A stretch of 64,000 nucleotides of DNA from Coriobacteriia bacterium. Lineage in GTDB: Bacteria; Actinomycetota; Coriobacteriia; Anaerosomatales; JAAXUF01. Positions within the stretch are counted from its first letter, which is position 1, and the number at the start of each line of letters is the position of its first letter. Under the pieces are notes generated by a model. It ran no database searches. It saw nothing but the letters and a program-made list of their open reading frames with translations, and was not told the origin of the DNA. The stretch is taken from positions 4,538 through 68,537 of the forward strand of contig JAAXUF010000008.1 in NCBI GenBank assembly GCA_013336165.1, in the 5' to 3' direction. Below are positions 25,238-45,464 of the stretch, piece after piece. Both the position numbers and the translations under genes were made by a program.

Positions 25238-26137
25238 GTGCCTCATATCAGCGGGAAAACGAAACTTGCCGGCGTCACCGGCCGGCCCTTGGATCACTCG
25301 CTTTCGCCTGCGATGCATAACGCGGCGTATGAGGATCTCGGCTTGGATTGGGTGTATGTTCCGCTTGAAGTCTCCGACGAGCGCGCGCTGGCCGATCTGG
25401 CGGCGGCGGTTCGGGTCCTCCCGTTCGTCGGATTCAATGTCACCATGCCCTACAAGCAGGCGATGCTCTCTTTGTGTGACGAGGTATCTTCAGAGGCGCG
25501 CGCGGCAGGGGCCGTCAACACGGTTTCACACGCCGACGGTTGGCTCATCGGTCACAACACTGATGGCATCGGACTGCTTGAGTCACTGCGAGTTGATGCG
25601 GGCTTCGATCCGGCAGGCAAGCGAGTGGTACTCCTCGGCGCGGGCGGTGCCGCGCGCGGCGCGCTGGCGGTCCTGTTGCTTGCAGGATGCGAGAGCGTGA
25701 CCGTCGTCAATCGCGACATGTCGCGAGCTGAGGCGCTCATCGATGACATGGCGTCGTGGATCGGGTCGGCCGCGGTGGATGCCGCGGAGCTCGGCGACGC
25801 CGCCGAGCAGGTCGCAGATGCGCACCTCGTCATCAACGCCACGCCCTTGGGGATGCGTCCCGATGACGCGAGCCCCGTGCCCATCGAGTGGCTACATGCC
25901 GGTTCCGTCGTCCTGGACATGGTGTACGGCACTCCGCGCCAGACGGCGCTTGTCGAAGGCGCACGCTCACGCGGTGCGATTGCGGTCGACGGTCTCGGCA
26001 TGCTGGTGCACCAAGGGGCCGCCGCCATCGACATCTGGAACGCGGCTGCCGAGGGGCCACGCGCGTCGCGTGACGTCATGCGCCGAGCGGCAGAAGATGC
26101 GCTTGCCGTGCGATTCCAGCCCGAGCCGAGAGGGTAG
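25238..26137 (+). CDS. aroE: Shikimate dehydrogenase
   Basis: ORF 25133..26137 trimmed to GTG 25238, preceded by the RBS 'taaggag'. Shows 'GRPLDHSLSPAMHNAAY', 'GFNVTMPYKQ', 'GHNTDGIG', and 'LLGAGGAARG'. Confidence 0.9.
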   Translation: MPHISGKTKLAGVTGRPLDHSLSPAMHNAAYEDLGLDWVYVPLEVSDERALADLAAAVRVLPFVGFNVTMPYKQAMLSLCDEVSSEARAAGAVNTVSHADGWLIGHNTDGIGLLESLRVDAGFDPAGKRVVLLGAGGAARGALAVLLLAGCESVTVVNRDMSRAEALIDDMASWIGSAAVDAAELGDAAEQVADAHLVINATPLGMRPDDASPVPIEWLHAGSVVLDMVYGTPRQTALVEGARSRGAIAVDGLGMLVHQGAAAIDIWNAAAEGPRASRDVMRRAAEDALAVRFQPEPRG

Positions 26138-26140
26138 ATC

Positions 26141-27814
26141 ATGGCGGTCACCCGAAGCACACGGCTCGGCAGGATTTTGGTCGGATCCGGTCTGATCAGC
26201 GAGAGCCAGCTTGCACAGGCGCTTGCGGTTTCGGGCGACCGGCCGCTGCCGGGCGTCCTGGAGGAATTGCATTTTGCGAGCGAGATCGCCGTGGCCAAAT
26301 CGATTGCCGAGGTCATGCACGTCGATTTCATCGACATCGCGTCATACGATCTTGACCCGAATGCGGCGATCACCCTGAAGCCTGATCTGATGAGACGCCA
26401 TCGCGTCTTGCCGGTGAAGATGCAAAACGGCGACCTCATTCTGGCGATGGCCGACCCGGCCGATCTGTTCGCGCTTGACGACGTTCGCATCGCCACGCGT
26501 AAGGAAATTCACCCGGTCGTCGCAGTCGAGCGCGACCTTCTGGCGGCCATAGAGCGTTTCACGGCCTCGCAAACCAACGTGAGCGGGATGGTGGGAGATC
26601 TTGAGGAGAGCGTCGGCTCGAACCTCGAAGACGAAGAGAGTGCCGAGGCGGGCGCGGAGTCGCCGGCTTCGCGTCTCATGAACCACATCGTGACAGATGC
26701 GATTCGCCGAGGGGCCGGCGACATCTACATCGAGCCAGGCGAGAACGACATGCGTATCCGGTTTCGCATCGACGGGGTATGTCAGGTGGTCGACGTCTTG
26801 CCCAAGAAGCTGCACCGCCAGCTCGTGAGCCGCCTGAAGATCAGCGCCGGTATGGACATTGCCGAGAGGCGCGTCCCGCAGGACGGCCGCTTTGGCGTCA
26901 CCCTCGACGGCAAGGCGATCGACTTTCGAGTCGCCGTTCTCCCTCTGGTCTACGGCGAGCTGGCCGTGCTTCGGCTACTCAGGCGCGATTCGATCATGAT
27001 GTCGCTCACGGACCTCGGCTTTCTTGAGCATAACCTCAAGCAGTTCCTGAACGCTCTCGCGCTGCCGTACGGCGCGATCCTTGTGACCGGGCCGACCGGC
27101 TCGGGCAAGTCGACCACGCTCTATGCTGCGATCAATGAGACGAGCGATCCCACAGCCAACCTCATCACCGTCGAGGATCCGGTCGAGTATCAGCTTGCAG
27201 GTCTTTCGCAGGTCCAAGTGAACGAGAAGGCCGGGCTCACCTTCGCCGCAGCACTGCGCTCGATTCTTCGCCAAGACCCGGACAAGGTGATGATCGGCGA
27301 GATTCGCGACAAAGAGACCGGCACGATCGCGATCGAGGCCGCACTAACCGGCCACTTGGTGTTGTCCACGCTACACACCAACGACGCCCCCTCGGCGATC
27401 ACGCGTCTGACCGAGATGGGCATTGAGCCGTTCCTCTCGGCGTCCGCGCTCACGCTGGTGATGGCACAGCGTCTTGCCCGGCGCCTGTGCCCCGACTGCA
27501 AAGAGGTGTATCGGCCGGATGAGGAAGCCTTGCGCCGAATCGGGTTCCCGTTCGAGCCGGGCAAGGTCCCGCAGCTGTATCGGGCGCGCGGGTGCCGCAA
27601 GTGCGGCGGGGTAGGGTACCGGGGGCGTCTTGGAATCCACGAAGTCATGACGATGTCCGAGTCGATCCGCCAGCTGGTGGTCAGCCGAGTTTCCGCCGAC
27701 GAAATCGCAAAGCAAGCTGTGCGCGAGGGGATGCTCACTCTGCGAGACGACGGATTCGCGAAAGTGGCCATGGGTCAGACGTCGATCGAAGAAGTCCTGC
27801 GCGTCGTAGTCTGA
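26141..27814 (+). CDS. pilB: Type IV pilus assembly ATPase, PilB/GspE family (copy 1)
   Basis: 557 aa. The N-terminal T2SSE_N-like region is 'LGRILVGSGLISESQLAQAL'. Walker A is 'GPTGSGKSTT'. Also 'VEDPVEY', 'IMIGEIRD', and the His box 'GHLVLSTLHTN'. The tetracysteine 'CPDC...CRKCGGVGYRGR' is typical of PilB/GspE rather than PilT. Confidence 0.92.
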   Translation: MAVTRSTRLGRILVGSGLISESQLAQALAVSGDRPLPGVLEELHFASEIAVAKSIAEVMHVDFIDIASYDLDPNAAITLKPDLMRRHRVLPVKMQNGDLILAMADPADLFALDDVRIATRKEIHPVVAVERDLLAAIERFTASQTNVSGMVGDLEESVGSNLEDEESAEAGAESPASRLMNHIVTDAIRRGAGDIYIEPGENDMRIRFRIDGVCQVVDVLPKKLHRQLVSRLKISAGMDIAERRVPQDGRFGVTLDGKAIDFRVAVLPLVYGELAVLRLLRRDSIMMSLTDLGFLEHNLKQFLNALALPYGAILVTGPTGSGKSTTLYAAINETSDPTANLITVEDPVEYQLAGLSQVQVNEKAGLTFAAALRSILRQDPDKVMIGEIRDKETGTIAIEAALTGHLVLSTLHTNDAPSAITRLTEMGIEPFLSASALTLVMAQRLARRLCPDCKEVYRPDEEALRRIGFPFEPGKVPQLYRARGCRKCGGVGYRGRLGIHEVMTMSESIRQLVVSRVSADEIAKQAVREGMLTLRDDGFAKVAMGQTSIEEVLRVVV

Positions 27815-27961
27815 TCCGGCCCGACACCTTGAGGCCTGCAGTCGACGGACGTTGTGCCTGACCCCCCTTCGTGAGAACATTCGAGCGCGTCCCGACACTT
27901 GCCGATAATCGAGTGGACCGGGCACACACCGTTGGAGACGAAGACCGAAAGGTACTCTGGG

Positions 27962-28336
27962 ATGAATGCAGTACTTGAGTCTCTCATCGGAAGCGAGCCT
28001 GAGATAGAAGCTGCGGCATTTGTTCGAGGCGACGGCGCTGTCGAATCCTCAACCTTCCGTTCGAAGGCGCAGGAATCTCGCATCGGGGCAATGGCCGCAG
28101 CGATCGTTGATGTGTGCAATCGTGCTTCCGCCGAAATCGGCCGAGGCGAGCCGACGGAGGTGGCCATCGCGGGTGCGGACGGCTACGTCGCGATTGTCTC
28201 GGCGAAGGATGATAGGTACTTGGTATGTGCGACTTCCTTGGCGGCCGACGTTCGTACCGTGTTGGCAACCATGCGGGTGGTAGTGGATTCGAGCCAGACT
28301 GCCGGAGAGTGCGTCTCGCCGGCTCAACAGGGGTAG
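27962..28336 (+). CDS. Roadblock/LC7 domain protein (MglB/CvnB-like)
   Basis: ORF 27899..28336 trimmed to ATG 27962. At 124 aa it matches the Roadblock size. The pattern is 'IEAAAFVRGDGAVESS...AMAAAIVDV...TEVAIAGADGYVAIVSAKDDRYLVC'. Confidence 0.72.
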   Translation: MNAVLESLIGSEPEIEAAAFVRGDGAVESSTFRSKAQESRIGAMAAAIVDVCNRASAEIGRGEPTEVAIAGADGYVAIVSAKDDRYLVCATSLAADVRTVLATMRVVVDSSQTAGECVSPAQQG

Positions 28337-28351: not shown

Positions 28352-29515
28352 ATGGCACTGCGCGGCAATCTTCAGGATTTCAGCCTTCCGGATATCTTTC
28401 AGCTGGTGTCATACAGCAGAAAGAACGGGGTGCTACACCTGCACGGTGCTGACGGCCTTACCGGTGACGTCATGTTCCGAGAAGGCCAGATCGCCCATGC
28501 TAGGAGCGACCGGTGGAAGGAGCCGCTGGGCGAGCGGCTTGTACGTTCGCGCAAGATATCGCGCCAAGACCTCAAGTGCGCTCTCGAAATCCGAGATCAT
28601 GGCGACTCGGATGACAGGCGTCTCGGGCGGATCCTTATCGACACCGGCTGTGCGAGCGAAGATGTAGTCACGGACTTCGTTCGCGAGCAGGTACAGGAGA
28701 CGGTTTTCGATCTCATGCAGTGGGAGGAAGGCGACTTCAGCTTCGAAGCGACTTCCGATGTCGTGGACGAAGATGTCGGCCCGGCACTCTCCATCGAGAA
28801 CATCATCATGGAGGGCAGCAGGCGGCTGGAGGAGTGGACCACCATCCGACGCAAGATCCCGTCGGCCGAGGTGGTGCTGGGGTTGGCTATCGCACCAGGG
28901 GACGGCGACGTCGACATCTCACTGAAGCCCGCTGAGTGGGCCCTGATGCCGTTCATCGACGGCCGACGCTCTGTCGCTACCATCGCATTTGAGTCCGGGC
29001 GCACGGAGTTCGAGGTCGCCAGAACGCTCTACGGGTTGCTGGGCGCCGGGCTGCTCGAGTTCGCCGAGACCGATGTCGACAGCGAGCAGGAGCCGCAAGC
29101 CGATCTCGCTGTCGTGACCGAGGAGCCGGTGCCCGCACAGGAAGAGGCGGAACTCGAACCGGAACCCGAACTAGAGCCGGAACCCCAACCCGAGCCGGTC
29201 TTCGTGATAGACGAACCCATCTACGAGACACTGCCGGTGGCCGAGCCGGAGATGCCGGCGGTCACCTCGCCTGAGGATGTGCCGCAAGGTCCACCACTCG
29301 CCCTCTTTGACGCCGAGCAGCCCGAGCCGACACCGGTATCCTTCGAGGGACTCGGCGAAGAGTTGTCTGCTCTGACTGGTGCAGAGCGCCGGGTGCGCCC
29401 GGAAGCACGGTCAGCGCCGGAACCGGACAGCCAACCCCGGGAGCCGTTGCGTTCCCGTTCTCAAATCAACAAGGACACTCTTCTCAAGGTCATAAATGGC
29501 CTGCGGAAGCTGTAG
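28352..29515 (+). CDS. PATAN/DUF4388-domain protein with an E/P-rich disordered tail
   Basis: - The N-terminus 'LRGNLQDFSLPDIFQLVSYSRKNGVLHL' is the DUF4388 (PATAN) hallmark.
- 'LGERLV...LGRILIDTG' resembles GspE-N repeats.
- 'LKPAEWALMPFIDGRRSVATIA...EVARTLYGLLGAGLLEF' looks like a winged helix.
- A roughly 130-aa E/P-rich region follows, including 'ELEPEPELEPEPQPEP'. Confidence 0.7.
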   Translation: MALRGNLQDFSLPDIFQLVSYSRKNGVLHLHGADGLTGDVMFREGQIAHARSDRWKEPLGERLVRSRKISRQDLKCALEIRDHGDSDDRRLGRILIDTGCASEDVVTDFVREQVQETVFDLMQWEEGDFSFEATSDVVDEDVGPALSIENIIMEGSRRLEEWTTIRRKIPSAEVVLGLAIAPGDGDVDISLKPAEWALMPFIDGRRSVATIAFESGRTEFEVARTLYGLLGAGLLEFAETDVDSEQEPQADLAVVTEEPVPAQEEAELEPEPELEPEPQPEPVFVIDEPIYETLPVAEPEMPAVTSPEDVPQGPPLALFDAEQPEPTPVSFEGLGEELSALTGAERRVRPEARSAPEPDSQPREPLRSRSQINKDTLLKVINGLRKL

Positions 29516-29530: not shown

Positions 29531-30055
29531 ATGCATTCGCTCAAGGTCGTCATCGTTGGTCCGGCGGGCTCCGGCAAGACGACGTTCATCGGCGCAGTGA
29601 GCGAGATCACCGTGCTTTCGACCCGCCGCGAGATCGGTGCGGGTGGCAAGGATGCGGCGGACCGCATTGCGGTAGACATGGACTTCGGCCGGGTCACCCT
29701 TGCCGACGACATCGTTCTCTACCTCTTTGGCACACCGGGGCATGAGCGCGTTTCCTTCATGTGGGAGACTCTTTCCGAGGGGTTGCTCGGCTTCGTGGTG
29801 CTGCTCGACAGTGAGAATTCGGCGTCTCTCGAAGAGGCCCGCGAGACAATTGCGTTTCTGAGGGGTGACTCCGAGTTGCCATTTCTGGTCGCGGCGAACA
29901 AGCTTGCACCGGATGACGCAGCGGCCGTCAAGCATTTGCGCACGTCGCTGCACCTGCCCGATGACATTCCGCTTGTTTCGGTAGATGCAAGAAGCAGAGA
30001 ATCGGCAAAGCTAGTCCTTGAAGGTTTGGCGCAAGAAGCAGTGAGGAGAGGTTAG
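29531..30055 (+). CDS. Small Ras-like GTPase, CvnD/COG2229 'ATP/GTP-binding protein' family (MglA-related)
   Basis: 174 aa. P-loop 'VGPAGSGKTTFIGAVSEI', 'MDFGRVTL', G3-like 'LYLFGTPGHERVSFMW', 'GFVVLLD', and G4-like 'AANKLA'. This closely parallels Streptomyces conservon CvnD proteins as I remember them. Confidence 0.8.
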   Translation: MHSLKVVIVGPAGSGKTTFIGAVSEITVLSTRREIGAGGKDAADRIAVDMDFGRVTLADDIVLYLFGTPGHERVSFMWETLSEGLLGFVVLLDSENSASLEEARETIAFLRGDSELPFLVAANKLAPDDAAAVKHLRTSLHLPDDIPLVSVDARSRESAKLVLEGLAQEAVRRG

Positions 30056-30505
30056 ATGACCCCGGAGTTGAATCGGATCGCCCTTGTCGGCGGAGCGGGT
30101 CTCCTGCTGGTCGTCGCCATGATGGTGCTGATCGTCTCGGCTGTCCGTGGTTCCCGGGCACGGAAGCGGCAGAAGGCTGCGGCGGCGCAGTATGTCGCAC
30201 CGCCCGAGAGCGGGCAGTCTCCGGCTCCGGCCGAGCCCCCGGTATCGCCTCCGGTCTGGGTTCAAGCCGAGGAGCCCCTGGCCCCGGAGCCTGTCGGCAC
30301 GGCCGTTCTCCAGGAGATCGAGCCCGCCGACTTCTCCCCGGAAGAAGTGCCAGTCAAGTACGCGATGACCGCGCCGGCGGAGATGTGGTTCGACGATCTT
30401 CACGTCGGCGTCAAGGCAGAAAGCGTCACCGCCGAGCGTCTGCGCTACTATGCTGACATCCTATTGGATGAGGTACATAACTCCTCGTCGAAGCGCGAGC
30501 AGTAA
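30056..30505 (+). CDS. Single-pass membrane protein with a proline-rich linker, function unknown
   Basis: Its ATG directly abuts the GTPase TAG stop. The TM helix is 'IALVGGAGLLLVVAMMVLIVSAV', followed by a basic stretch and then a P/E/A-rich region. Confidence 0.55.
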   Translation: MTPELNRIALVGGAGLLLVVAMMVLIVSAVRGSRARKRQKAAAAQYVAPPESGQSPAPAEPPVSPPVWVQAEEPLAPEPVGTAVLQEIEPADFSPEEVPVKYAMTAPAEMWFDDLHVGVKAESVTAERLRYYADILLDEVHNSSSKREQ

Positions 30506-30526: not shown

Positions 30527-32200
30527 TTGGCAGACGCGGCACAAAGGCTCGGTGAACTACTCGTTCGGGCGGGCGTCATCACGGCCAGTCAGCGAGACGA
30601 CGCCGTCCAGGTCCATGTCGCAACGGCTTCCCCGCTTGGCAAAGTGCTGGTTGAACTGGGCTATGCCAGCCACGGCGCGATCCTCGCGGTGGTGGCAAAG
30701 CAGATCGGCATCGAGTACATGGATCTGAGCGAGCGTCGCCCCGAACCGGGCGCCGTTGCGCTCATACCGCGCGAAGTTGCGACGCGCTACATGCTGATGC
30801 CGCTCGAGATTCGGGGCAACACTCTTCTGGTTGCCATGGCCGATCCACAAAACGTGCTCACCATCGATCACGTCAGGATCATCACCGGGCACGAGATCAG
30901 ACCCGCGATCTCGACGAAGAATGACATCCTTGAGGCGATCCGGCAGTACTACGATGTTGCCGATCGTGACGACAGTGACCTGCGCCTAGAAACAGACGAA
31001 CCGGACGACGAGGAACTCGGCCAGTTGGCGGACGTCGAGTCCGAGGCGCCTGCGGTCAAGCTCGTGAACTACATCATCCAGAAGGCCGTCAACGACCGGG
31101 CCTCAGACATCCACATCGAACCGCAACAAGATGAACTGCGCGTGCGGTTCCGGGTGGACGGCGTGCTCGTTGAAGCGACACCGCCGATCCCGAAGTCTAC
31201 TCAGGCATCCATCATCTCGCGGTTCAAGATCATGGCCGACATGGACATCTCGGAGTCGCGTCGGCCTCAAGACGGCCATTGCTCAGTATCCGTGGGCGGG
31301 CAAAAGCTCGATGTGCGAGTCTCGTCGTTGCCGACGGTTTTTGGCGAGCGCATGGTCTTGCGTCTCCTGCGCAAGGACTCGATCCTGCTGCAGCTCTCGG
31401 ATCTGGGCTTCCTGCCCTCGGCGAAGGACCGCTTTGAAGCCGCTTTCACCAAGCCGTACGGCGCGGTCTTGGTCACGGGTCCCACCGGTTCAGGCAAGTC
31501 GACCACGCTCTACGCTGCGGTCAATGTGCTCAACGACCCGTCCCGCCACATCATGACCGCCGAGGATCCGGTGGAGTACCGGCTCGCCGGCGTGAATCAA
31601 TGCCAGGTGAACCCCAAATTGGGAATGACCTTCGCGCGAGCGCTGCGATCGTTTCTGCGCTGCTCTCCCGATGTGATCTTGGTGGGGGAGATCCGCGACC
31701 AAGAAACGGCCAAGATCGCGATTGAGTCCGCGCTCACGGGACACTTAGTGCTCTCGACACTGCACACAAATGACTCCGCATCCGCGATCACTAGGTTGAT
31801 CGAGATGGGCGTCGAGCCGTTTCTGGTCTCGTCGGCTGTCGATTGCGTGCTCGCGCAGCGTCTTGCGCGGCGGCTATGCCCAGAATGCCGACAGGCGTGG
31901 ACGCCGGAATCCGGGGCGCTCATTAAACTGGGCTACGATGCCGATAGTCTTCCCGACGTCGTATACCGGGCCGTGGGTTGCAGAAAGTGCGGCGGCACCG
32001 GCTACAAGGGACGCTTGGGAGTTCATGAGGTTCTCTTGGTTTCCGACGAGATCAGGAGGCTGTGTGTTTCTGAAGCGTCAGTAGAGGAAATCAGACGCAC
32101 CGCCATTGAGCAGGGCATGAGGACATTGCGGCAGGACGGTCTTGAGAAGGTTCGACAGGGTCTGACGTCGGTTGAGGAAATCGTTCGTGTGATAGTGTAA
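30527..32200 (+). CDS. pilB: Type IV pilus assembly ATPase, PilB/GspE family (copy 2)
   Basis: TTG start, 557 aa (the same length as copy 1). Shows 'LGELLVRAGVITASQ', Walker A 'GPTGSGKSTT', 'ILVGEIRD', 'GHLVLSTLHTN', and the tetracysteine 'CPEC...CRKCGGTGYKGR'. Confidence 0.92.
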   Translation: MADAAQRLGELLVRAGVITASQRDDAVQVHVATASPLGKVLVELGYASHGAILAVVAKQIGIEYMDLSERRPEPGAVALIPREVATRYMLMPLEIRGNTLLVAMADPQNVLTIDHVRIITGHEIRPAISTKNDILEAIRQYYDVADRDDSDLRLETDEPDDEELGQLADVESEAPAVKLVNYIIQKAVNDRASDIHIEPQQDELRVRFRVDGVLVEATPPIPKSTQASIISRFKIMADMDISESRRPQDGHCSVSVGGQKLDVRVSSLPTVFGERMVLRLLRKDSILLQLSDLGFLPSAKDRFEAAFTKPYGAVLVTGPTGSGKSTTLYAAVNVLNDPSRHIMTAEDPVEYRLAGVNQCQVNPKLGMTFARALRSFLRCSPDVILVGEIRDQETAKIAIESALTGHLVLSTLHTNDSASAITRLIEMGVEPFLVSSAVDCVLAQRLARRLCPECRQAWTPESGALIKLGYDADSLPDVVYRAVGCRKCGGTGYKGRLGVHEVLLVSDEIRRLCVSEASVEEIRRTAIEQGMRTLRQDGLEKVRQGLTSVEEIVRVIV

Positions 32201-32238
32201 GGTGGTCTTCAGGCGTTATGGGGGTATGAGGAGCAAGA

Positions 32239-33447
32239 ATGACGACATTTGCATACGCGGTCAGGGACAAGTCCGGCAAGGTTGTGAAGGGCAAGCTTGA
32301 CGGTGAGAGCCAAGCGGCTGTCCAGAGCAAACTCTCCCAAATGGGCTACATCATTCTCGAGCTGAGACAGCAAAGTGCGCTCATGTCGTTCGGGGCAATC
32401 AAGATCGGCGGCAGCGTCAAGCCCAAGGAAGTCACGATCTTCGCACGTCAGTTCTCCACGATGATCCATGCGGGGCTCTCGCTCACGAAATGTCTGACGA
32501 TTCTGTCGCAGCAGACCGAGAGTGCAGCGCTTAAGGAAGTCATCGCTCAGATTGGGAAGGACGTCGAAGCCGGGCAGTCGCTATCTGAGGGGCTTGCTAA
32601 GCATCCCAAGGTCTTTCCCCCGATCTTCGTAAGCATGACCCGCGCCGGAGAAATCGGTGGTGTTCTGGACGAGGTCTTGGCTCGTGTGGCGGATCACCTT
32701 GAGGCCGAACAGGCTCTCAAAGGCAAGATCAGGTCCGCAATGATGTATCCGATCGCGATCGGATGCCTAGTAGTCCTCATCCTGGCGGCAATGCTGATCT
32801 TCGTGGTTCCCATATTTGTTGAGATGTTTGCGGGCATGGGAGGTACGCTTCCCCTGCCTACCCAAATCCTCGTAGACTTTTCCAATTTGGTCACGAGTTT
32901 CTGGGGCCTTGTGATTCTAGCTGCGATCATCGCTGTGATCTGGTTTTTTCGCTGGTGGTCCAAGGGGGCGGGGAAGCTGGCGTGGGACCGGATCAAGCTG
33001 GGCATGCCTGTCTTTGGGCCCCTGGTTCGAAAGATTGCTCTGGCTAGGTTCAGCCGGACCTTTGCGACACTGGTTTCCGCCGGTGTTCCGATCCTTCAAG
33101 CACTGGACATAGTCGCTGAGACATCGGGTAACGAGGTGATCTCTCTTGCTGTGAAGAAGTCGCGTGCTGCCATCAAGGAGGGCGAGACTATTGCCAAGCC
33201 GCTGTCGGAATCTAAGGTCTTCCCCCCGATGCTTGTTCAGATGATCAGCGTAGGCGAGGAAACCGGTGCGTTGGACACCATGCTCAACAAAGTTGCTGAG
33301 TTCTACGATGAGGAGGTCGCCTCAGCAACGGATGGGCTGACATCGCTGATTGAGCCGCTCATGATGGTTACGCTCGGTCTGATAGTGGGAGGTATGGTGA
33401 TAGCTCTGTACCTTCCGATGTTCAATGTGATAGCGTTAGTCAAGTAG
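32239..33447 (+). CDS. pilC: Type IV pilus platform protein PilC (GspF family)
   Basis: 402 aa with two GspF repeats ('FARQFSTMIHAGLSL' and 'FSRTFATLVSAGVPI'). The C-terminal 'EPLMMVTLGLIVGGMVIALYLPMF' is typical of the family. Confidence 0.92.
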   Translation: MTTFAYAVRDKSGKVVKGKLDGESQAAVQSKLSQMGYIILELRQQSALMSFGAIKIGGSVKPKEVTIFARQFSTMIHAGLSLTKCLTILSQQTESAALKEVIAQIGKDVEAGQSLSEGLAKHPKVFPPIFVSMTRAGEIGGVLDEVLARVADHLEAEQALKGKIRSAMMYPIAIGCLVVLILAAMLIFVVPIFVEMFAGMGGTLPLPTQILVDFSNLVTSFWGLVILAAIIAVIWFFRWWSKGAGKLAWDRIKLGMPVFGPLVRKIALARFSRTFATLVSAGVPILQALDIVAETSGNEVISLAVKKSRAAIKEGETIAKPLSESKVFPPMLVQMISVGEETGALDTMLNKVAEFYDEEVASATDGLTSLIEPLMMVTLGLIVGGMVIALYLPMFNVIALVK

Positions 33448-33571: not shown

Positions 33572-33952
33572 ATGCAAGCATTTCGCAAGAACGATGAAGG
33601 CTTCACGCTCGTAGAACTCATGGTCGTCGTTTTGATCATCGGTATCTTGGTCGCCATCGCGATCCCGGTATTCAACAACGCCAGCAACAACGCGCGTATC
33701 AAGTCTTGTCAGGCCAACATGCGAACCATTGAAGGCGCCTACCAGACGTACATGGCCAACAACGGCACGGCCATCACTGCCGCAACTACGGTTGTCTCGG
33801 GCGGGATCTTGGTTCCGGGCTTCATTGCCGCTGTGCCTGCGTGTCCCTCCGATCCGAACTTCGGAACCACCACCGCCAAGACCCCCTACAGCTTGGCTAC
33901 AACTGGCTTGACGGCCTGTCCGATCGTGCCTCTCACTCACATCCACTACTAG
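33572..33952 (+). CDS. pilA: Type IV (T4a-like) major pilin, copy 1
   Basis: ORF 33452..33952 trimmed to ATG 33572. The leader is 'MQAFRKNDEG', then 'FTLVELMVVVLIIGILVAIAIP' (class III signal, Glu at +5). The C-terminal Cys pair is 'ACPSD...TACP'. Confidence 0.9.
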   Translation: MQAFRKNDEGFTLVELMVVVLIIGILVAIAIPVFNNASNNARIKSCQANMRTIEGAYQTYMANNGTAITAATTVVSGGILVPGFIAAVPACPSDPNFGTTTAKTPYSLATTGLTACPIVPLTHIHY

Positions 33953-38530: not shown

Positions 38531-39682
38531 ATGCAGCACATAACAGCCGGCGAATCACACGGTCCCTGTCTGACCACCATTGTCACCGGCGTGCCCGCTG
38601 GGATCTCCTTGACGTGCGCGGACATCGATCACGATCTCGCACGTCGGCAACGTGGCTACGGCCGCGGCGGACGTCAGTCCATCGAATCCGATCACGGGCG
38701 AGTGACTTCCGGAGTGCGTTTTGGGCGCACAATCGGGAGTCCCATCGCAATCGTTATCGAGAATTGCGACTGGAGCAACTGGACTGAGATCATGTCACAT
38801 TCCGGGGAGAAGTCGGCAGGCACTCGCGTGACTCAACCGCGTCCGGGGCACGCGGATCTTGCGGGGATTCTCAAGACCGGTTCCGATGACGTGCGCGATG
38901 TCCTCGAGAGAGCCAGTGCCAGAGAGACCGCAGCGCGCGTGGCTGCGGGAGCTGTTGCAAAGGCATTCCTGAGGGAACTCGGCGTTCAGATCGCCTCATA
39001 TGTGCAGGCCATAGGTTCCGTCACGATGCCGGCAGTTGAGGACCCTGCCTCTCTTGCTGAAGCCTCCATCGAGGAAAGCGAGCTCCGCTGTCCCGACGGC
39101 CCGACCACAGAACTCATGAAGGCTGCAATTGACGCTGCGCGGGAGGCAGGAGAGTCTCTCGGAGGCGTGTTCGTTGTGACTGCCACTGGGTTGGTGCCCG
39201 GGATAGGTACCTATGCCGAGGCGGCTCGCAGGCTGGATGCGCAGATCGCAGCCGCCATCATGTCGATTCCTGCGATCAAGGCGGTCGAGATAGGCGACGG
39301 GTTCGCGCTTGCAGCTGTTGTCGGCAGCAAGGCGCATGATGAGATCCATTATTCTCAGGAGCGCGGCTACCACAGATACACCAACCACGCGGGCGGTCTT
39401 GAGGGTGGAATGACGAATGGGGAGACCTTGGTCGTACGCGCGGCCATGAAACCCATCCCCACGCTGATGCGACCGCTTGCAAGCGTCGACATTGACACGC
39501 ACGAAGCGGTGGATGCCAGCAGGGAACGCAGTGACGTATGTGCAGTTCCGGCTGCGGCTGTTGTCGCCGAAGCAGAACTCGCTCTAGTGCTTGCCCAAGC
39601 ATACGTCGATAAATTTGGCGGGGATGCGATGGTCGATATCATCGCTGCGCGTGATGCGTATCTTGCAAGGATCGCCCGATGA
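38531..39682 (+). CDS. aroC: Chorismate synthase
   Basis: ORF 38465..39682 trimmed to ATG 38531. Shows 'TAGESHGP', 'RPGHADL', and 'GGLEGGMTNGE'. Confidence 0.95.
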   Translation: MQHITAGESHGPCLTTIVTGVPAGISLTCADIDHDLARRQRGYGRGGRQSIESDHGRVTSGVRFGRTIGSPIAIVIENCDWSNWTEIMSHSGEKSAGTRVTQPRPGHADLAGILKTGSDDVRDVLERASARETAARVAAGAVAKAFLRELGVQIASYVQAIGSVTMPAVEDPASLAEASIEESELRCPDGPTTELMKAAIDAAREAGESLGGVFVVTATGLVPGIGTYAEAARRLDAQIAAAIMSIPAIKAVEIGDGFALAAVVGSKAHDEIHYSQERGYHRYTNHAGGLEGGMTNGETLVVRAAMKPIPTLMRPLASVDIDTHEAVDASRERSDVCAVPAAAVVAEAELALVLAQAYVDKFGGDAMVDIIAARDAYLARIAR

Positions 39683-40194
39683 GCCATGTGTTCCTCATAG
39701 GGTTCATGGGTGCGGGAAAATCCACCGTTGCTCGGGAAGTGGGAGAGAGACTGGATCGTCCGGTGGTCGATCTCGACCGAGTTGTGGAATCGAGCTCCGG
39801 ATACACGATTCCTGAAATCTTTGAGAGCGCCGGAGAGCAGGGGTTCCGCGCATTGGAGTCTGCCGCGTTGGCTGAGCTTGCTGATGCGCCTGCCAGTATC
39901 GTCGCATGTGGCGGAGGTATCGTCATATCGGATGAGAACCGCGTTGCCCTGAAGCGCCAAGGCTCCGTCATCTATCTGCGGGTGAGTCCGGAAGAGACAC
40001 TAGCCCGTGTGGGCGCGGACAAGTCCCGTCCGCTTCTGTCCGGTCCAGAAGGTGAGCTCGCGGCTGCCCGGCTCTTGGATTCCAGGGAGACACTCTACGC
40101 GGCCGTGGCCGATGCGACGATCGAGACGGTGGGTCTTTCGATGCACGAAGTTGCAGACGCTGCGGTCCAAGCCATCAAGGAGCGTGGATTGTGA
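39679..40194 (+). CDS. aroK: Shikimate kinase
   Basis: 'LIGFMGAGKSTVAR' (P-loop), 'FRALES', and 'VACGGG'. The ATGA start overlaps the aroC stop. Confidence 0.9.
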   Translation: MSHVFLIGFMGAGKSTVAREVGERLDRPVVDLDRVVESSSGYTIPEIFESAGEQGFRALESAALAELADAPASIVACGGGIVISDENRVALKRQGSVIYLRVSPEETLARVGADKSRPLLSGPEGELAAARLLDSRETLYAAVADATIETVGLSMHEVADAAVQAIKERGL

Positions 40195-41297
40195 CGATTT
40201 CGAGTATCGTCCACGTTGAGGTTCCGCACGCCGATTACGACGTCACCGTCGGAATCGGCTTGCTGGGCGAACTGGGCGCACGAGTTCGCGCGGTTTCCTC
40301 GGCGAAGCGCGTTGCCCTGGTCAGCGATTCCACGGTGGCCGCTCTCTATGGGCTCAGGGTCGATGCGGAGCTTGCCCGTGGAGGGTTTGAGGTGTTTCCA
40401 CTTTCGATTCAGCCAGGAGAGGGATCCAAGAGCTGGCTTGTCGTCGGCGAACTCCTCGAGGCTATGGCGGAGGTCGGTTTGGATCGTACCGACATCGTGG
40501 TCGCTCTGGGCGGCGGGGTGATTGGCGACGTCGCGGGCTTTGCGGCGGCCACGTATTTGCGCGGGATCGACTTCGTCCAGGTTCCCACTTCGCTGTTAGC
40601 TCAGGTGGATTCGTCGGTTGGGGGCAAGACAGGTGTCGACCTGCGTGCAGGAAAGAACCTCGCCGGCGCATTCAAGCAGCCGCGTGCGGTGGTCGCAGAT
40701 GTTGCGCTGCTCGAATCCCTGCCACAAGCCGAGTGGGCGAATGGTTTCGCAGAGGTCGTGAAGGGTGCGTTCATCGAAGGCGAGGCGTTCGTTTCATGGC
40801 TCGAACATCACTGCGATGAGCTTGTTTGTCATGATCAGAGTGCAGTTGCCGATGCGGTCTCGCGTTGCGTGCGATTCAAGTCGAGGGTCGTGTCTTCCGA
40901 TGAGAGGGAGACAGGGCTGCGAGAGTGCCTGAACTACGGACACACCCTGGGTCATGCGATCGAGAAGGTCGCCGGCTATGGTGTGGTCTCACACGGCGTC
41001 GCTGTTGCGGAGGGTATGCGGTTCGCAGCGCGACTTTCAGTAGAGGTATGCGGCACGAGCCGGGAGTTTGTGGAGCGGCAGGACAGACTGCTGGATGCAT
41101 TCGGTCTTCCGGCAGCTACAATGAACATTGAGGCAAACGAGTTGTTCGACGCAATGCGTGCTGACAAGAAAGTCCGCGCGGGGATGGTGCGGTTCGTGCT
41201 GCCGGAGAGGGCAGGGTCTTGGAGATGCTGTCCGGTCGAGGACAAAGTGATTCTGCAGCATCTGCGAGCGTGGGCTGCTTCGAAGAGAAGAGGGTGA
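40191..41297 (+). CDS. aroB: 3-dehydroquinate synthase
   Basis: '[45 protein letters not shown]' and '[12 protein letters not shown]'. Confidence 0.93.
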
Positions 41298-41299
41298 CG

Positions 41300-41743
41300 A
41301 TGACCCGAGTGCTGGTCCTGAATGGGCCGAACCTAAACCTGCTCGGTACTCGTGAGCCCGAGATATATGGGTCTGAGAGTCTTGCGGATATTGAAGCTGC
41401 CGTCCGAGGCGTTGCGCAGGAGCTGGGCGTCGAACTCACGTTCCTCCAAAGCAACCACGAGGGCGAGCTGATCGATGCGCTCCATGCATGCGTCGTTGAC
41501 TGCGATGCGGTGGTGTTCAATCCCGGGGCATTCACACACTATTCGTATGCACTGCGCGACGCGGTCGCCTCAATCCGGGTGCCGGTTGTGGAGGTTCATT
41601 TGTCCAATATCTCCGGCCGCGAGGCGTTCCGCCGAGAAAGCGTGATCGCTCCCGTTTGTGTGGGCCAGATCGCGGGTTTCGGTTCTGCTGGATACCTTCT
41701 TGGAGTGAAAGCGGTTCTGGGTTTGCTTTCCGCCCGTGGGTAG
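41300..41743 (+). CDS. aroQ: Type II 3-dehydroquinate dehydratase
   Basis: ORF 41219..41743 trimmed to ATG 41300. Shows '[21 protein letters not shown]', '[11 protein letters not shown]', and '[15 protein letters not shown]'. Confidence 0.93.
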
Positions 41744-41788: not shown

Positions 41789-43501
41789 ATGAGGAAACAT
41801 GAAGACGGGTTCACCGTAGCCGAGGTACTCATCTCCTTGGCGATCCTTCTGATTGTGGTAATGGGCGTGCTGACGGCGCTCGAGTACTCCGCGTGGACCA
41901 CCCAGCAAAATGCGATGCGGCAGGGTGCCGTTGAGTTGGCCAATAAGACGCTTGAGAAGGCGCGAACGATTCCCTATGCCGAGCTGGGCACACACTACCC
42001 GGACGGCACGTATGGCGACCCTCCAGGATCCATTCCAACCAGTACGACTGTGGGCGACTACACGGTCGTGACGAGCGTGTCTTGGGTGCGAGATCCTGTT
42101 TCGCACAGAGCGACATACAAAGATGTACAAGTGACGGTCTCGTGGCAGAAGCCGCATGCGTCAAGCGTATTTGTGGAGACGGGCGTCTTTGGCAAGAACA
42201 GCTACGTCAACAGCGGCGACGTCCAGATCCACGTTCTTGATGCCGACGATCTTAGTGCCCAGATCGCGGGCGCAGCGGTTACACTCACGCCAGCCACCGG
42301 AGTGACCCGATGGGAGACTACACTCACAGACGGAATCGCCTTCTTCGGCTACGTGCCATCGGGGGCCACAGGCGTGGCGGCCGCTCTCACGGGGTGGATG
42401 GCAGACCTCACCGCTTTCGGCGCGAAGACGGTCAACACTGACTCACTCAATGACTGGGCGCTCCTGATGCAGCGCGAAAGCGATGCAACCATCTACGTTG
42501 TTGGCGCTCCGAGCGGCTCGCCGATAGCGGGGGCAACGGTAACCCTGACGAATAATGAGCGATCACTCATCTATTACGGCACATCAAATGCGGCAGGGGC
42601 GGTGACCTTCCCTCAACTATGGAAGGCAACTGGCGCCGGGTACACGGTGTTGGTGACCTATCCCGGCCGTGATAATGGTGTCGCGTCATTCACAATCCCC
42701 AGCGGCGGGTATCACGCCAGCCAGACTGTGACGATTAACGACCCTACGTCGTTCGTGGTGTCCGTGAAGGATGCGGCCACGAATGCTGTGGTGGCAGGCG
42801 CGCAGGTCACCGTGCGTGACTCGGTCAATGCCCATGTCCCCGGGAGTCCCGGTGTCACAAGTGCAGGCGGCACGGCTTCATTCCAGATCAATCAGACCGG
42901 CACCTACACGGTCACAGTCGCTGCGACGGGATACACGACTTCGGTCACTTCCACCAACATCTCCGCGGGAGTTGGCGCCGTCACCTATATGGTCGCGTTG
43001 GCGCCGCCGACCTATCTCAGGGTGACGTGCAAGGACAGCGTGTCGAACCTTCCCATCGCAGGGGCGAGCGTCACGGTGGGCAGTACAACGCTGACCACCG
43101 ATAGTAGCGGGAACGCCCTCTTCACAATCACGGCAACGGGTACGTATGCCATCAATGCGACTGCGAGCGGCTACCAAGGCTACTCGGGATCGCAGTATGT
43201 TGCATTGGGCTCGGGCACAGTAGCCCATTCGGCGAGCATGGTTCCGGCGCCGACAACGGGGTCACTGCGAGTGCATGTTACGCGTTGGTGGGACGGGGAT
43301 CCTCGAGACGATGTGCAGGTGACCCTTTACAGGGGTAACACGCAGGTAGCAACTCAGAGGACGGATAGCGATGGTTACACCACTTTCACTAATCTCGCCC
43401 CTGGTACGAACTATAGAGTCAGGAGAACCAACTACAACACCTATTTCGGCTACTTCACCGTGACCGCCGGCTTGACCACGACCGCCGAAGTGAGCTGGTG
43501 A
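41789..43501 (+). CDS. Large pilin-like protein: prepilin-type N-terminus plus about five carboxypeptidase-regulatory-like beta-sandwich repeats (candidate pilus adhesin)
   Basis: ORF 41750..43501 trimmed to ATG 41789. The leader is 'MRKHEDG', then 'FTVAEVLISLAILLIVV' (Glu at +5). Five modules then recur with the pattern 'AGA.VT(L/V)...G.A.F..(L/I)..G.Y.V'. Examples are 'AGAQVTVRD...GTASFQINQTGTYTVTVAATGY' and 'AGASVTVGS...GNALFTITATGTYAINATASGY'. Confidence 0.78.
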   Translation: MRKHEDGFTVAEVLISLAILLIVVMGVLTALEYSAWTTQQNAMRQGAVELANKTLEKARTIPYAELGTHYPDGTYGDPPGSIPTSTTVGDYTVVTSVSWVRDPVSHRATYKDVQVTVSWQKPHASSVFVETGVFGKNSYVNSGDVQIHVLDADDLSAQIAGAAVTLTPATGVTRWETTLTDGIAFFGYVPSGATGVAAALTGWMADLTAFGAKTVNTDSLNDWALLMQRESDATIYVVGAPSGSPIAGATVTLTNNERSLIYYGTSNAAGAVTFPQLWKATGAGYTVLVTYPGRDNGVASFTIPSGGYHASQTVTINDPTSFVVSVKDAATNAVVAGAQVTVRDSVNAHVPGSPGVTSAGGTASFQINQTGTYTVTVAATGYTTSVTSTNISAGVGAVTYMVALAPPTYLRVTCKDSVSNLPIAGASVTVGSTTLTTDSSGNALFTITATGTYAINATASGYQGYSGSQYVALGSGTVAHSASMVPAPTTGSLRVHVTRWWDGDPRDDVQVTLYRGNTQVATQRTDSDGYTTFTNLAPGTNYRVRRTNYNTYFGYFTVTAGLTTTAEVSW

Positions 43502-44154
43502 GTCGATTGACAATCAGGTGGCGCGAGCGCAAAGGCGAATTGGGCGGCGACGCGGGGTTCACCCTAGTCGAGTTGATGATTGCGGTCAGCTTGCTTTCGC
43601 TCGTGTTGGCGACTGCGTATATGGTTCTCAATAGTGTCAGTTCGATGAGTGACCGCGTCTCGGCTCGCGAGATGGCAGCATCCAGTGCGAACTTGGCGAT
43701 CGAGCGAATGACGCGTGAACTCCGGCAGGCGCAGGAGTTGTCAACCGCCGAGGGTGCCGGGGTCTTCAGATACAACGAGCCGCAACGTGCATCGTTCTAT
43801 ATTGACTTAGATCACAACGGCACGCCGGAACGCGTGACCTACTACGTCTCGGGAACCACGCTCTATCGGACGGTCGCCGTAGCTACGATCACGTATCCGG
43901 GCGCGGGGAACTTCGGTGCCGATAGCGCTCCAACGGCGGTGCTGAGTGGCTTGGATCCGGGGTGGACGCCCAATGTGTTTGTCTACTACGACAACAGCAG
44001 TGTTCCGGCCGTGGTCAGCTCCGCGAATCCGGACGAGGTTTCGGCGGTCGAAATCACCGTCGTCGCACAGGGACGATCCGGATCCATCACCGCCTCTGCC
44101 ACGAGCACGACCTGGGTCAGGATTCGCTCAGTTCATAACGACATCGCTTACTAA
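43498..44154 (+). CDS. Minor pilin (prepilin-type N-terminal cleavage/methylation domain)
   Basis: 'GDAG' followed by 'FTLVELMIAVSLLSLVLATAYMVL' (Glu at +5). The start overlaps the upstream gene's stop (GTGA). Confidence 0.75.
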   Translation: MSRLTIRWRERKGELGGDAGFTLVELMIAVSLLSLVLATAYMVLNSVSSMSDRVSAREMAASSANLAIERMTRELRQAQELSTAEGAGVFRYNEPQRASFYIDLDHNGTPERVTYYVSGTTLYRTVAVATITYPGAGNFGADSAPTAVLSGLDPGWTPNVFVYYDNSSVPAVVSSANPDEVSAVEITVVAQGRSGSITASATSTTWVRIRSVHNDIAY

Positions 44155-44171
44155 AGCTGGAGAGAAGAGCC

Positions 44172-45464
44172 ATGGATACCCTGCGCATCAAGCGTGAGAT
44201 ACGGAAAGCGGTGCACCTCGCGCGTGCTGACGACGGGATGGCGCTGGCAACCGTGGTCGTGATCTCGGCGATTCTGTTTATGCTGGTGACCACACTCCTT
44301 GTGGTGGTTGCACAGCAGCAGCTTACGACCTCACATACTGTCGCAAGGGCTAAGGCGCTCCAAGTTGCGGATTCCGGAATTGACGCTTATCTCTACCACA
44401 TGAGGCAGAACACGACCTACTACTCCACCAATCCCGTGTTGGGACCGGTTGCAACCACTGAAGGCATGTTCACCGTCACCGCCACGCCACCAACGGGCAA
44501 CGGGCCCATCATCTTGAGATCCGTCGGCACCATACCATCCCTAGGGGCCACGAAAAGCATAGTCGCCTCAGTCAGATACCCAACCTTTGCTGACTATGTG
44601 TTCCTGTATGATACGGACATCAGTATCGGCTCTGAAGCCACCATTATTGGCAAGGTCAGAAGCAACAGAAGCATCGACAACGATGGCGTGATCACCGGTG
44701 CCTGCATCGCGGCCGATTCCATCACGGGAAGTGGTTCGTTTGGCAGCAGGCAGCCCGACTCGCCAGTCATCGACTTCTCGAGCGTCTTGACCGACATGGG
44801 CCAGATGAAGACCACGGCACAGGGGACATCCACGTATTTCGCGTCGTCGGGCACTCGCGGCTACCGGGTTATCCTGAACGGCATGAACTTCAGCGTTGCG
44901 AAGGTGACTGCTGTGAACAGTTCAACAGGCGCCCTGACTCTGGGAACCGCGACGAACTACTCGATTCCCACGGCAGGAATCCTCTATTTCAATGACACTA
45001 TCTGGCTCAGCGGAACGTACTCGACAAGAGTCACTGTTGCATGCGGCGATACGAGCGTCAACGACCCCGGCTATGCGACTCCCGTAGACGATTCGGCCGT
45101 GTTCATTCTGGACAACTTGGTCCCCCAGGATCCATATGGCACGGCGGTCTGCGGTGTCGTTGCGCTCGGGGATATCAGCGTACCCAGTTGGTACAGTTCG
45201 ATGCCGCAGGATCTGACGATCCAGGCCGCCCTTCTCTCGCAGGCCGGCGGTATCCATGCTGACTGGTCTTCTGCGAGGAACAAGGACAGCTTCCACTTGA
45301 TCGGATCTAGGGCGCAGAAAGGCGAGGGAGGTTTCGTGAGCGGCTCCATGGGCTTCATGTCGCGTGTCTACGAGTACGATGCTCGACTCGACACAAACCC
45401 GCCGCCCAGCTTCCCGGTTGTGAGAGACGGTGCGCTCAAGGTCAGTACGTGGGTCGAGAACTGA
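44172..45464 (+). CDS. PilX/GspK-like minor pilin lacking Glu+5 (tentative)
   Basis: 'ARADDG' followed by 'MALATVVVISAILFMLVTTLLVVVA', then 'ALQVADSGIDAYLYHM', which is PilX-N-like. A large C-terminal domain follows. It is the last gene of the minor-pilin trio. Confidence 0.55.
   Translation: MDTLRIKREIRKAVHLARADDGMALATVVVISAILFMLVTTLLVVVAQQQLTTSHTVARAKALQVADSGIDAYLYHMRQNTTYYSTNPVLGPVATTEGMFTVTATPPTGNGPIILRSVGTIPSLGATKSIVASVRYPTFADYVFLYDTDISIGSEATIIGKVRSNRSIDNDGVITGACIAADSITGSGSFGSRQPDSPVIDFSSVLTDMGQMKTTAQGTSTYFASSGTRGYRVILNGMNFSVAKVTAVNSSTGALTLGTATNYSIPTAGILYFNDTIWLSGTYSTRVTVACGDTSVNDPGYATPVDDSAVFILDNLVPQDPYGTAVCGVVALGDISVPSWYSSMPQDLTIQAALLSQAGGIHADWSSARNKDSFHLIGSRAQKGEGGFVSGSMGFMSRVYEYDARLDTNPPPSFPVVRDGALKVSTWVEN

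Follow-up and report, generated by a model that had tools for sequence, protein, structure and literature searches.

A window of 64,000 bp from a Coriobacteriia bacterium of the phylum Actinomycetota (contig JAAXUF010000008.1, positions 4,538 to 68,537) was analyzed with respect to a type IVa pilus locus that is interleaved with genes of the shikimate pathway. Gene identities were assigned by Pfam and NCBIfam scans of the plus strand open reading frames (ORFs) between 24.7 and 47.3 kb of the window. The scans recovered every gene that had been named in the initial annotation, all on the plus strand and in the order stated there. This order is aroE, pilB1, a GTPase cassette, pilB2, pilC, pilA1, pilA2, pilD, pilM, pilN, pilO and a PilP-like gene, followed by aroC, aroK, aroB and aroQ, three genes described as minor pilins (mp1, mp2, and mp3), pepP, and efp. 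Unless a related locus is named, coordinates are those of the window, and all features of the locus lie on its plus strand.

Upstream of the pilus genes, the shikimate dehydrogenase gene aroE (25238..26137; Shikimate_dh_N, Shikimate_DH, and SDH_C) is separated from pilB1 by 3 nucleotides (nt); its ORF extends from 25133, and the likely start is the ATG at 25202 or the GTG at 25238. Downstream, the junction begins with pilM (35469..36593; PilM_2, E = 6e-50; 1365 homologues), the start of which is backed by our alignment A1. The following gene pilN (36593..37255) codes for 220 amino acids (aa) without a Pfam match and was identified by the N-terminal MVHINLLP/INLLP motif, a single transmembrane helix, and its position. 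Weak GspL and Amuc_1101 matches were obtained for it in the NCBIfam scan, and in the related loci L084 and L089 the gene at the same position matches PF05137 (PilN). With pilO (37268..37885; PilO and T2SSM) the genes of the PilM–PilN–PilO subcomplex are complete, and next comes the PilP-like gene (37895..38455, 186 aa).

The chorismate synthase gene aroC (38531..39682; PF01264, E = 5e-113) follows the stop codon of the PilP-like gene after 9 nt if a TTG start is assumed and after 75 nt with the ATG start; its ORF opens at 38465, and we used the ATG as in the gene call of L001. L001 is the window's own contig, and an identical 12 kb stretch is present on a Logan contig from SRR11449212. The genes for shikimate kinase, aroK (39679..40194; SKI, E = 1.8e-45), and 3-dehydroquinate synthase, aroB (40191..41297; DHQ_synthase and DHQS_C), each overlap the preceding gene by 4 nt, and the type II 3-dehydroquinase gene aroQ (41300..41743 by gene call; DHquinase_II, E = 1.7e-59) completes this block. 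Overlaps within the range of 1–4 nt were also found for pilM/pilN and mp1/mp2. The widest gaps measure about 90–125 nt and are situated around pilA1, pilA2, and pilD and at the start of the GTPase cassette, where the gap before the Roadblock gene grows to about 150 nt if a downstream ATG is its start. Gene content, order, one-strand layout, and the tiny gaps are therefore as initially described.

Related loci were collected by a search with a PilM alignment in a genome set in which each species had a single representative; this yielded 80 loci, and the window proteins were located in them by tblastn. The genome scan and the homologue searches returned Actinomycetota only, and the closest PilM homologues (57–71% identity) belong to Coriobacteriia, Anaerosomatales, or Actinomycetota metagenome-assembled genomes (MAGs). 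The 72 loci extending more than 2.5 kb past pilO were scored for the downstream junction. In 71 of these species-level loci the order pilM-pilN-pilO-[PilP-like]-aroC-aroK-aroB-aroQ is kept, with aroC at most 3.5 kb downstream of pilO and with aroK, aroB, and aroQ next wherever the locus continues. The spacing between the PilP-like gene and aroC is short, with a median of about 108 nt over 69 loci.

More distant loci were found by an alignment search with PilM representatives of 33–50% identity, and the genomic context of seven matches was inspected. The junction is present in six of the seven (PilM identity 33–43%), namely in Acidimicrobiales, Nitriliruptorales, a Frankia-labelled MAG, and three further Actinomycetota contigs; the seventh, L086, ends before aroC. 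Immediately upstream of the pilus genes aroE was found in three of the seven loci, in one of them (L083) together with mltG, and aroE lies upstream in all distant loci that reach far enough in this direction. Three of the seven contain the run aroQ-pepP-efp, which is continued by nusB in L087 and L089. As the same order recurs in the distant loci, at least four classes carry the cluster at the same place, flanked by aroE and aroC. The adjacency of the pil and aro genes is consequently not unique to the strain under study, and its conservation in related and distant loci alike argues for an old, vertically inherited insert in an actinobacterial housekeeping block.

Two further features were seen in distant loci. 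A gene of the HTH_17 family coding for 48–72 aa is situated immediately upstream of pilM in L083 (9846-10001), L085 (9161-9379), L086 (9785-9997), and L087 (9849-9995); at this position the window has a gap of 92 nt. The product may be a local regulator, or the gene may mark the start of a transcription unit. L087 also carries a glycosylation/polysaccharide cluster between pilD and pilM (879-9612) with Wzy_C, Bac_transf, several glycosyltransferases, a flippase, and a methyltransferase, which may serve pilin glycosylation.

The housekeeping genes around the insert run alaS-ruvX-mltG-aroE on the upstream side and aroC-aroK-aroB-aroQ-pepP-efp-nusB on the downstream side. In the window, further genes interrupt this backbone: aroE is preceded by an ABC transporter and yqeG, and nusB by carboxylase genes and asp23. 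The upstream neighbor of aroE (24709..25200) codes for a HAD-IIIA phosphatase of the YqeG family (TIGR01668, 108 bits, cutoff 89.1; Pfam HAD matches). The downstream genes are pepP/pepQ, coding for an Xaa-Pro aminopeptidase (45542..46627, ORF opening at 45515; Creatinase_N and Peptidase_M24), and efp, coding for elongation factor P (46669..47235; EFP_N, EFP, and Elong-fact-P_C). A block alaS-ruvX-mltG-aroE ... aroC-aroK-aroB-aroQ-pepQ-efp-nusB is also present in Mycobacterium and Corynebacterium; in such actinobacteria without type IV pili, a gene for a prepilin peptidase may be retained in the interval from aroE to aroC. The backbone genes of the window stand in the same order as in this actinobacterial block, and part of the order is found in L083 (mltG-aroE) and in L087 and L089 (aroC to efp-nusB). 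The window differs by about 12 kb of pilus genes between aroE and aroC, by the carboxylase genes and asp23 between efp and nusB, and, together with its subclade, by a further 3.7 kb of minor pilin genes between aroQ and pepP.

The initial annotation had pointed to the Bacillus neighborhoods yqeG-aroE and aroQ-pepP-efp; the actinobacterial alaS...nusB block is the better frame of reference for the window. The region from 46669 to 56872 on the plus strand, with efp, the carboxylase alpha subunit, biotin carboxylase, asp23, nusB, xseB, dxs, tlyA, nadK, and recN, resembles the Bacillus subtilis region efp...accBC-yqhY-nusB-folD-xseAB-ispA-dxs-yqxC-argR-recN. This resemblance suggests that the block shared with Firmicutes is far larger.

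From these comparisons we consider it very probable that the locus represents the type IVa pilus cluster in its Actinomycetota form, vertically inherited and embedded in the conserved block alaS-ruvX-mltG-aroE...aroC-aroK-aroB-aroQ-pepP-efp-(nusB). The interleaving of pil and aro genes would then be ancestral to the phylum.

The last gene before aroC (NCBI HGA39_06985) had been called PilP-like. In PilP, a beta-sandwich HR domain connects PilNO with the secretin. According to an AlphaFold2 model, the product of the gene spans the membrane with one helix (residues 22-50) and carries a beta domain at its C-terminus (about residues 118-186), the two being joined by a disordered linker rich in Ser, Thr, and Pro. 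The protein contains a conserved F.FR(D/N).F.P motif. The model was derived from a 61-sequence alignment, and the predicted local distance difference test score (pLDDT) of the C-terminal domain is about 95. The ten best Foldseek matches in the PDB are PilP from Myxococcus, Pseudomonas, and Neisseria, the HR domain of GspC/PulC, and GspB, with a probability of 1.0 for the top five. Comparison with 3oss_C (GspC/PulC HR) gave a target-normalised TM-score of 0.84 and a root mean square deviation of 1.4 Å. Genes at the same position in other classes are homologous to the PilP-like gene (hhalign 98.1%, E = 6e-14). No lipobox was found in the protein, and its anchor is a transmembrane helix as in GspC and not a lipid.

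Based on the predicted structure, the resemblance of the gene product to the PilP/GspC HR domain is one of true structural homology, so that the name originally given to it was well chosen. The predicted fold together with the homology across classes indicates that this membrane-anchored homologue of PilP belongs to the conserved components of the machine in actinobacteria. In a 2019 review by Pelicic, the absence of PilP from monoderms is called "logical" (PMC6916266), and we found no description of a PilP homologue in monoderms in the open-access literature searched. A possible rationale for keeping PilP without a secretin is that PilP belongs to the minimal Neisseria assembly set; it is listed among eight proteins sufficient for filament assembly in a 2023 review (PMC10191384).

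No Secretin domain was detected by Pfam scans in any ORF of the 64 kb window, and with E. coli HofQ as tblastn query neither the window nor the related loci (1.57 Mb) yielded a match. PilT is absent from the window according to Pfam scans and tblastn, and no LysM/TsaP-type protein is encoded by the window ORFs. Within the window, the lack of PilQ/secretin, TsaP, and PilT thus agrees with the initial annotation, and no secretin was found in the related loci either. The lack of a secretin gene at the locus fits the single-membrane cell plan of the Actinomycetota. A PilT-like gene follows pilB directly in 29 of 88 related loci, none of which belongs to the subclade of the window. In other classes an MshEN domain is joined to the PilT-like protein. 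Thus the second ATPase of the distant loci L083 (4527-6143), L085 (4434-6026), and L086 (4946-6559) carries MshEN at its N-terminus, and its core is PilT-like, matching a PilT of 353 aa with at least 45% identity along a stretch of more than 250 residues, a combination atypical of PilT.

Several points weigh against reading the locus as an old, vertically inherited pilus cluster that has a PilP homologue and no secretin. All loci were found via PilM, and clusters sited elsewhere with a more divergent PilM would be missed; most of the seven distant loci are without firm taxonomy. The negatives for secretin, PilT, and TsaP refer to the 64 kb window, that for secretin also to the related loci and that for PilT also to the loci of the window's subclade, so that a secretin or PilT gene outside these stretches would have gone unnoticed. 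The Foldseek E-values of the PilP-like model are modest (0.026–0.3), the assignment being one by predicted structure, and searches at the sequence level were borderline: among 24 orthologues scanned with Pfam, one matched PilP (E = 0.032) and four matched T2SSB, and a profile search of the PDB sequences gave GspC at E = 0.2. Scans for promoter and terminator consensus sequences yielded no excess over shuffled sequence. Finally, the GC content is 0.555–0.567 across pilC to pilO (window 32000-38000) compared to 0.60–0.66 in the rest.

This dip in GC content could point to a foreign origin, and we therefore considered whether the pilus cluster might be a horizontally acquired island, inserted into the aro block recently or repeatedly. 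Such a history would also agree with Denise et al. (2019), who describe type IVa pili as a polyphyletic group with a scattered distribution among monoderm clades. However, the same site and the same internal order were found in at least four classes at PilM identities of 33–71%, neither flanking repeats nor tRNA genes nor integrase genes were found at the cluster, and in the PilM tree the Coriobacteriia-type loci lie apart from three distant loci (L083, L085, and L086). We regard horizontal acquisition as very unlikely and adhere to vertical inheritance of the embedded cluster.

The initial annotation had further described the pilus locus as broken into blocks, with three minor pilins behind aroQ. 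The first of these genes, mp1 (41789..43501), codes for a large modular pilin of 570 aa (N_methyl, four CarboxypepD_reg domains, and SpaA), and the second, mp2 (43498..44154), for a minor pilin of 218 aa (N_methyl, E = 2e-7). Both carry the canonical class III signal peptide with Gly at -1, Phe at +1, and Glu at +5 (G/FTVAEVL in mp1, G/FTLVELM in mp2) and are minor pilins as proposed. The third, mp3 (44172..45464, 430 aa), has no Pfam match; its product has a pilin-like hydrophobic N-terminus without Glu5, and to this extent the description has to be modified.

The position of the three genes turned out to be variable. In 47 loci the gap between pilD and pilM measures about 3.1–4.5 kb (median 3.9), and the aroQ-pepP gap of the same loci has a median of about 39 nt. 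The large gap contains an ORF triad coding for about 500–580 aa with a prepilin motif, 190–220 aa, and 415–645 aa. Going by its size pattern, which matches that of mp1–mp3, this triad is the same module. The reverse pattern, that is, a pilD-pilM gap below 1 kb and an aroQ-pepP gap of 3.6–4.2 kb, was found in the window (L001) and in seven other species (L002, L004, L005, L010, L011, L016, and L034). The eight loci with the reverse pattern and four truncated loci form one clade in a neighbor-joining PilM tree, so that a single relocation event explains the module between aroQ and pepP. We propose that the module left its place after pilD once, in the subclade of the window, and came to stand behind aroQ. 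Other slots are occupied as well: L032, L063, Acidimicrobiales, Nitriliruptorales, and L086 have the module after the PilP-like gene and before aroC, and L084, L088, and L089 have it after pilA and before pilD. The broken appearance of the locus is thus real and is due in part to a recent relocation in one subclade. Only two features are special to this subclade, the module position between aroQ and pepP and the lack of pilT in the locus.

The relocated module is also the one observation that could speak for a chance rearrangement peculiar to this strain, as it lies behind aroQ in 8 of the 59 loci with an assignable module position. It is shared with seven other species of one clade, and the junction of pilO and aroC is kept in 71 of 72 loci. 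These two findings refute a strain-specific rearrangement, the probability of which we regard as negligible.

The remaining genes of the cluster provide the core of a type IVa pilus machine. There are two genes for PilB-type extension ATPases, pilB1 (26141..27814) and pilB2 (30527..32200). Both products contain an MshEN/GSPII N-terminal domain and a T2SSE core and have TIGR02538 as best NCBIfam match, with scores of 604.7 and 626.3 bits just below the equivalog cutoff of 675.65. The two proteins are 48% identical when aligned end to end, and both have the paired cysteine motifs CPDC/CPEC ... CRKC in the C-terminal region. That either of them is a disguised PilT was rejected on the grounds of the end-to-end identity, the shared cysteine motifs, and a poor PilT match. 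pilB2 encodes the main extension ATPase and is present in all related loci (orthologues 66–82% identical). A second PilB gene upstream of the GTPase cassette was found in the window, L004, and L012. In PilB2 the cyclic di-GMP (c-di-GMP) motif of the MshEN domain is intact (NF053729, 39.7 bits, cutoff 38), and in PilB1 it is only half matched (26.1 bits, model positions 1-24 of 53). Control by c-di-GMP may therefore be split between the two paralogues, as far as can be deduced from these motifs.

Between the two ATPase genes lies a cassette consisting of the genes for a Roadblock/LC7 (MglB-like) protein (27899..28336; PF03259, E = 2e-9), a protein with a PATAN (DUF4388/PatA_N) domain (28352..29515; PF14332, E = 2.6e-33), and a small Ras-like/GPN-loop-like GTPase (29531..30055; ATP_bind_1, Arf, and Ras matches, TIGR00231). 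The GTPase is recognized by generic small-GTPase models only. An MshEN-like c-di-GMP motif in residues 58-113 of the PATAN protein remained below the threshold (NF053729, 32.9 bits, cutoff 38). The cassette is followed by a gene for a proline-rich membrane-anchored protein of 149 aa (30056..30505) without a Pfam match, for which tblastn found matches among the relatives only in L012 and L021. In the related loci tblastn matches were obtained 30 times for the GTPase, 18 times for the PATAN protein, and 15 times for the Roadblock protein, and the triad is situated between aroE and pilB also in L085 and L086.

A Roadblock/LC7 protein and a small GTPase, here with a PATAN protein beside the pilus ATPases, resemble the MglA/MglB module of Myxococcus and Thermus. 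The GTPase of the window, in contrast, fits best to the GPN-loop/ATP_bind_1 family and not to an MglA model. In Synechocystis, PATAN response regulators bind PilB, the motor of type IV pili, according to a preprint (bioRxiv 10.1101/2021.06.11.447907); unlike these, the PATAN protein of the window lacks a receiver domain. The cassette stands next to the ATPase genes in several classes, and by analogy with both systems it is likely a spatial or temporal regulator. Together with the MshEN motif of PilB2 it would probably set where and when pili are made.

Downstream of pilB2 follow pilC for the platform protein (32239..33447; two T2SSF domains, E = 1e-66), the major pilin gene pilA1 (33572..33952; N_methyl), its tandem copy pilA2 (34061..34441; N_methyl), and pilD for the prepilin peptidase (34546..35376; A24_N_bact and Peptidase_A24). 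PilA1 has the leader MQAFRKNDEG followed by FTLVELM, and the processing site G/FTLVELM is the same in PilA2. The two pilins are 90% identical at the protein level and 94% identical over 300 nt at the DNA level (direct repeat D1); pilA2 is a recent tandem duplicate. Considering the domain content, PilD would cleave and mature the prepilins, and PilB2 and its paralogue PilB1 would power the polymerization of PilA1 and PilA2 on the PilC platform. PilM, PilN, and PilO together with the membrane-anchored PilP/GspC-HR-type protein would form a membrane subcomplex that holds the platform. The three-gene module, comprising a large pilin with immunoglobulin (Ig)-like repeats, a small pilin, and a noncanonical pilin-like protein, may prime or tip the fiber. 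The large pilin mp1 has four CarboxypepD_reg/Ig-like repeats and weak ComGE and PilV matches and is a plausible adhesin.

The initial annotation had suggested that the pilus genes may be cotranscribed with the genes of aromatic amino acid biosynthesis. We folded the intergenic regions and found the strongest structure directly downstream of pilA1, a long GC-rich hairpin (33960..34015) with a predicted RNA folding energy of -54.8 kcal/mol and a z-score of -2.49; 4 of 200 shuffled sequences folded as well. The hairpin is a candidate attenuator, terminator, or mRNA stabilizer; attenuators typically look like this where they follow the gene of a strongly expressed major pilin. A strong hairpin of this kind is present behind pilA1 only and not behind pilA2. 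A second GC hairpin with a U-containing tail, in the interval between mp3 and pepP (45486..45511; z-score -1.75; 8 of 200 shuffles folding as well), is a possible weak terminator. No significant hairpin was found at the junctions PilP-like/aroC and aroQ/mp1, and Rfam and tRNA scans of the window found nothing. As nothing notable folds at the pil/aro junctions, cotranscription is possible, and internal promoters are equally possible.

A functional linkage in which pilus and shikimate genes are cotranscribed or coregulated would couple the pili to the supply of aromatic amino acids or to the growth state. The single strand, the close packing of the genes, which overlap or stand no more than about 150 nt apart, the missing hairpins at the two junctions, and the short spacing between the PilP-like gene and aroC are in line with it. 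The module, moreover, is found in three or four slots including the aro-pepP stretch, which suggests that read-through is available there. On the other side, the aro genes are essential housekeeping genes and pili are usually tightly regulated, and there is room for a promoter in the 75 nt before aroC or within the PilP-like gene. In E. coli, aroK-aroB have their own promoters and are independent of the silent hof genes, which likewise counts against the linkage. We judge a functional coupling to be unlikely. The genes probably form long units along the one strand, in which the hairpin behind pilA1 would serve as attenuator, and internal promoters, for example before pilM and aroC, are likely, which would make the essential aro genes independent of pilus regulation.

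The other sizeable ORFs of the window code for housekeeping functions or have no Pfam match. The former include secDF, relA, hisS, aspS, rarA, a sigma factor gene, alaS, ruvX, mltG, and an ABC transporter, and further the carboxylase subunits, asp23, nusB, xseB, dxs, tlyA, nadK, recN, murJ, and pyrG. An ORF of 1210 codons at 3322-6954 on the plus strand has an unusual architecture, as a complete RecJ (DHH, DHHA1, and RecJ_OB) is fused to HIRAN and a superfamily 2 helicase (DEAD and Helicase_C). ORFs without a family match are, besides the 149-aa ORF mentioned above, those for 270 aa at 23885-24697 after an ABC-2 permease and for 216 aa at 13324-13974 before rarA, both on the plus strand.

It was proposed initially that the locus may preserve an ancient linkage, pilMNOPQ being followed by aroK-aroB in many diderms. 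This precedent could be confirmed: E. coli K-12 has hofM-N-O-P-Q-aroK-aroB on one strand, and Weaver et al. (2020, PMC7545093) state for Gammaproteobacteria that aroK and aroB flank pilMNOPQ, "consistent with literature precedent". As in Proteobacteria, pilM, pilN, pilO, and pilP are followed in the window by aroK-aroB on the same strand, here with aroC in between. In contrast to Proteobacteria, pilQ is missing, aroC precedes aroK, and aroQ follows aroB. Moreover, pilB, pilC, pilA, pilD, and the minor pilin genes belong to the same locus and are not scattered, and a transmembrane helix, as in GspC, holds the PilP-like protein in the membrane in place of the lipid anchor of proteobacterial PilP. 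That aroC stands where pilQ would be is true of this arrangement; in Acidimicrobiales and Nitriliruptorales, however, the minor-pilin block is inserted between the PilP-like gene and aroC. The position of aroC in place of pilQ is therefore a coincidence of this arrangement.

Compared with the type IVa pili of monoderm Firmicutes (Clostridium perfringens, C. difficile, and Streptococcus sanguinis), the locus of the window shares the clustering of the genes for PilB, PilC, PilD, PilM/N/O, and the major and minor pilins on one strand. Large modular pilins such as mp1 are known in S. sanguinis, too. The Firmicutes clusters have no secretin either, as stated in the 2019 review (PMC6916266). Differences are the PilP/GspC-HR-type protein after PilO, the Roadblock-PATAN-GTPase cassette, the two PilB paralogues, the lack of PilT in the locus, and the embedding between aroE and aroC.

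The pil-aro arrangements of Actinomycetota and Proteobacteria could descend from one ancient arrangement, from which the secretin was lost in the former, with PilP kept beside the site of the deletion. Order and strand are identical in both lineages as far as pilM-N-O-P followed by aroK-aroB is concerned, and the gene right ahead of the aro genes has kept a true PilP/GspC-HR fold, as modeled. By the inference of Denise et al. (2019), the secretin was lost several times when monoderm type IVa pili originated. Against this stands that our comparison spans two phyla, Actinomycetota and Proteobacteria, that the minor-pilin block and not aroC comes after the PilP-like gene in Acidimicrobiales and Nitriliruptorales, and that aroC and aroQ are outside the proteobacterial block. 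The pair aroK-aroB is, furthermore, so conserved that two independent captures are conceivable. Shared ancestry is in our opinion a serious possibility, though somewhat less probable than its opposite. More doubtful is the extended proposal that the junction is a genomic scar of outer-membrane loss. It would have the diderm arrangement pilMNOPQ-aro(C)KB predate the split of Actinomycetota and Proteobacteria and the secretin gene be deleted in the actinobacterial stem, with PilP, the HR domain of which is otherwise known for binding the secretin, kept for a secretin-independent role in assembly.

Taken by itself, the system is a type IVa pilus of the monoderm kind that has kept a PilP/GspC-HR protein, is accompanied by a PATAN-GTPase module, and occupies a fixed position among housekeeping genes. 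For the phylum this arrangement is nothing unusual; it appears to be undescribed in the literature searched. We found no description of the aroE/aroC address of actinobacterial type IVa pili in the open-access literature searched. For a link of pil and aro genes in Gram-positives or Actinobacteria, only the proteobacterial pilMNOPQ-aroKB precedent was found there, including PMC3244431, PMC13091076, PMC6916266, PMC6668835, and PMC10191384. The pili of Actinobacteria studied experimentally until 2019 were all of the Tad type, according to a review of that year (PMC6916266). A fixed, phylum-wide address in an essential block therefore provides an anchor for finding and comparing the largely unstudied actinobacterial pili, and the mobile three-gene module with its three or four slots shows where the locus tolerates rearrangement. 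The predicted PilP/GspC-HR homologue without a secretin gene at the locus contradicts the current view that PilP is absent from monoderms and would offer a natural system to separate the assembly role of PilP from its role in secretin docking. Should the linkage share its origin with pilMNOPQ-aroKB, envelope evolution would gain one of the rare markers based on gene position, and if the linkage is indeed a scar of outer-membrane loss, the pil-aro junction would be a datable synteny marker of the transition from diderm to monoderm cells.

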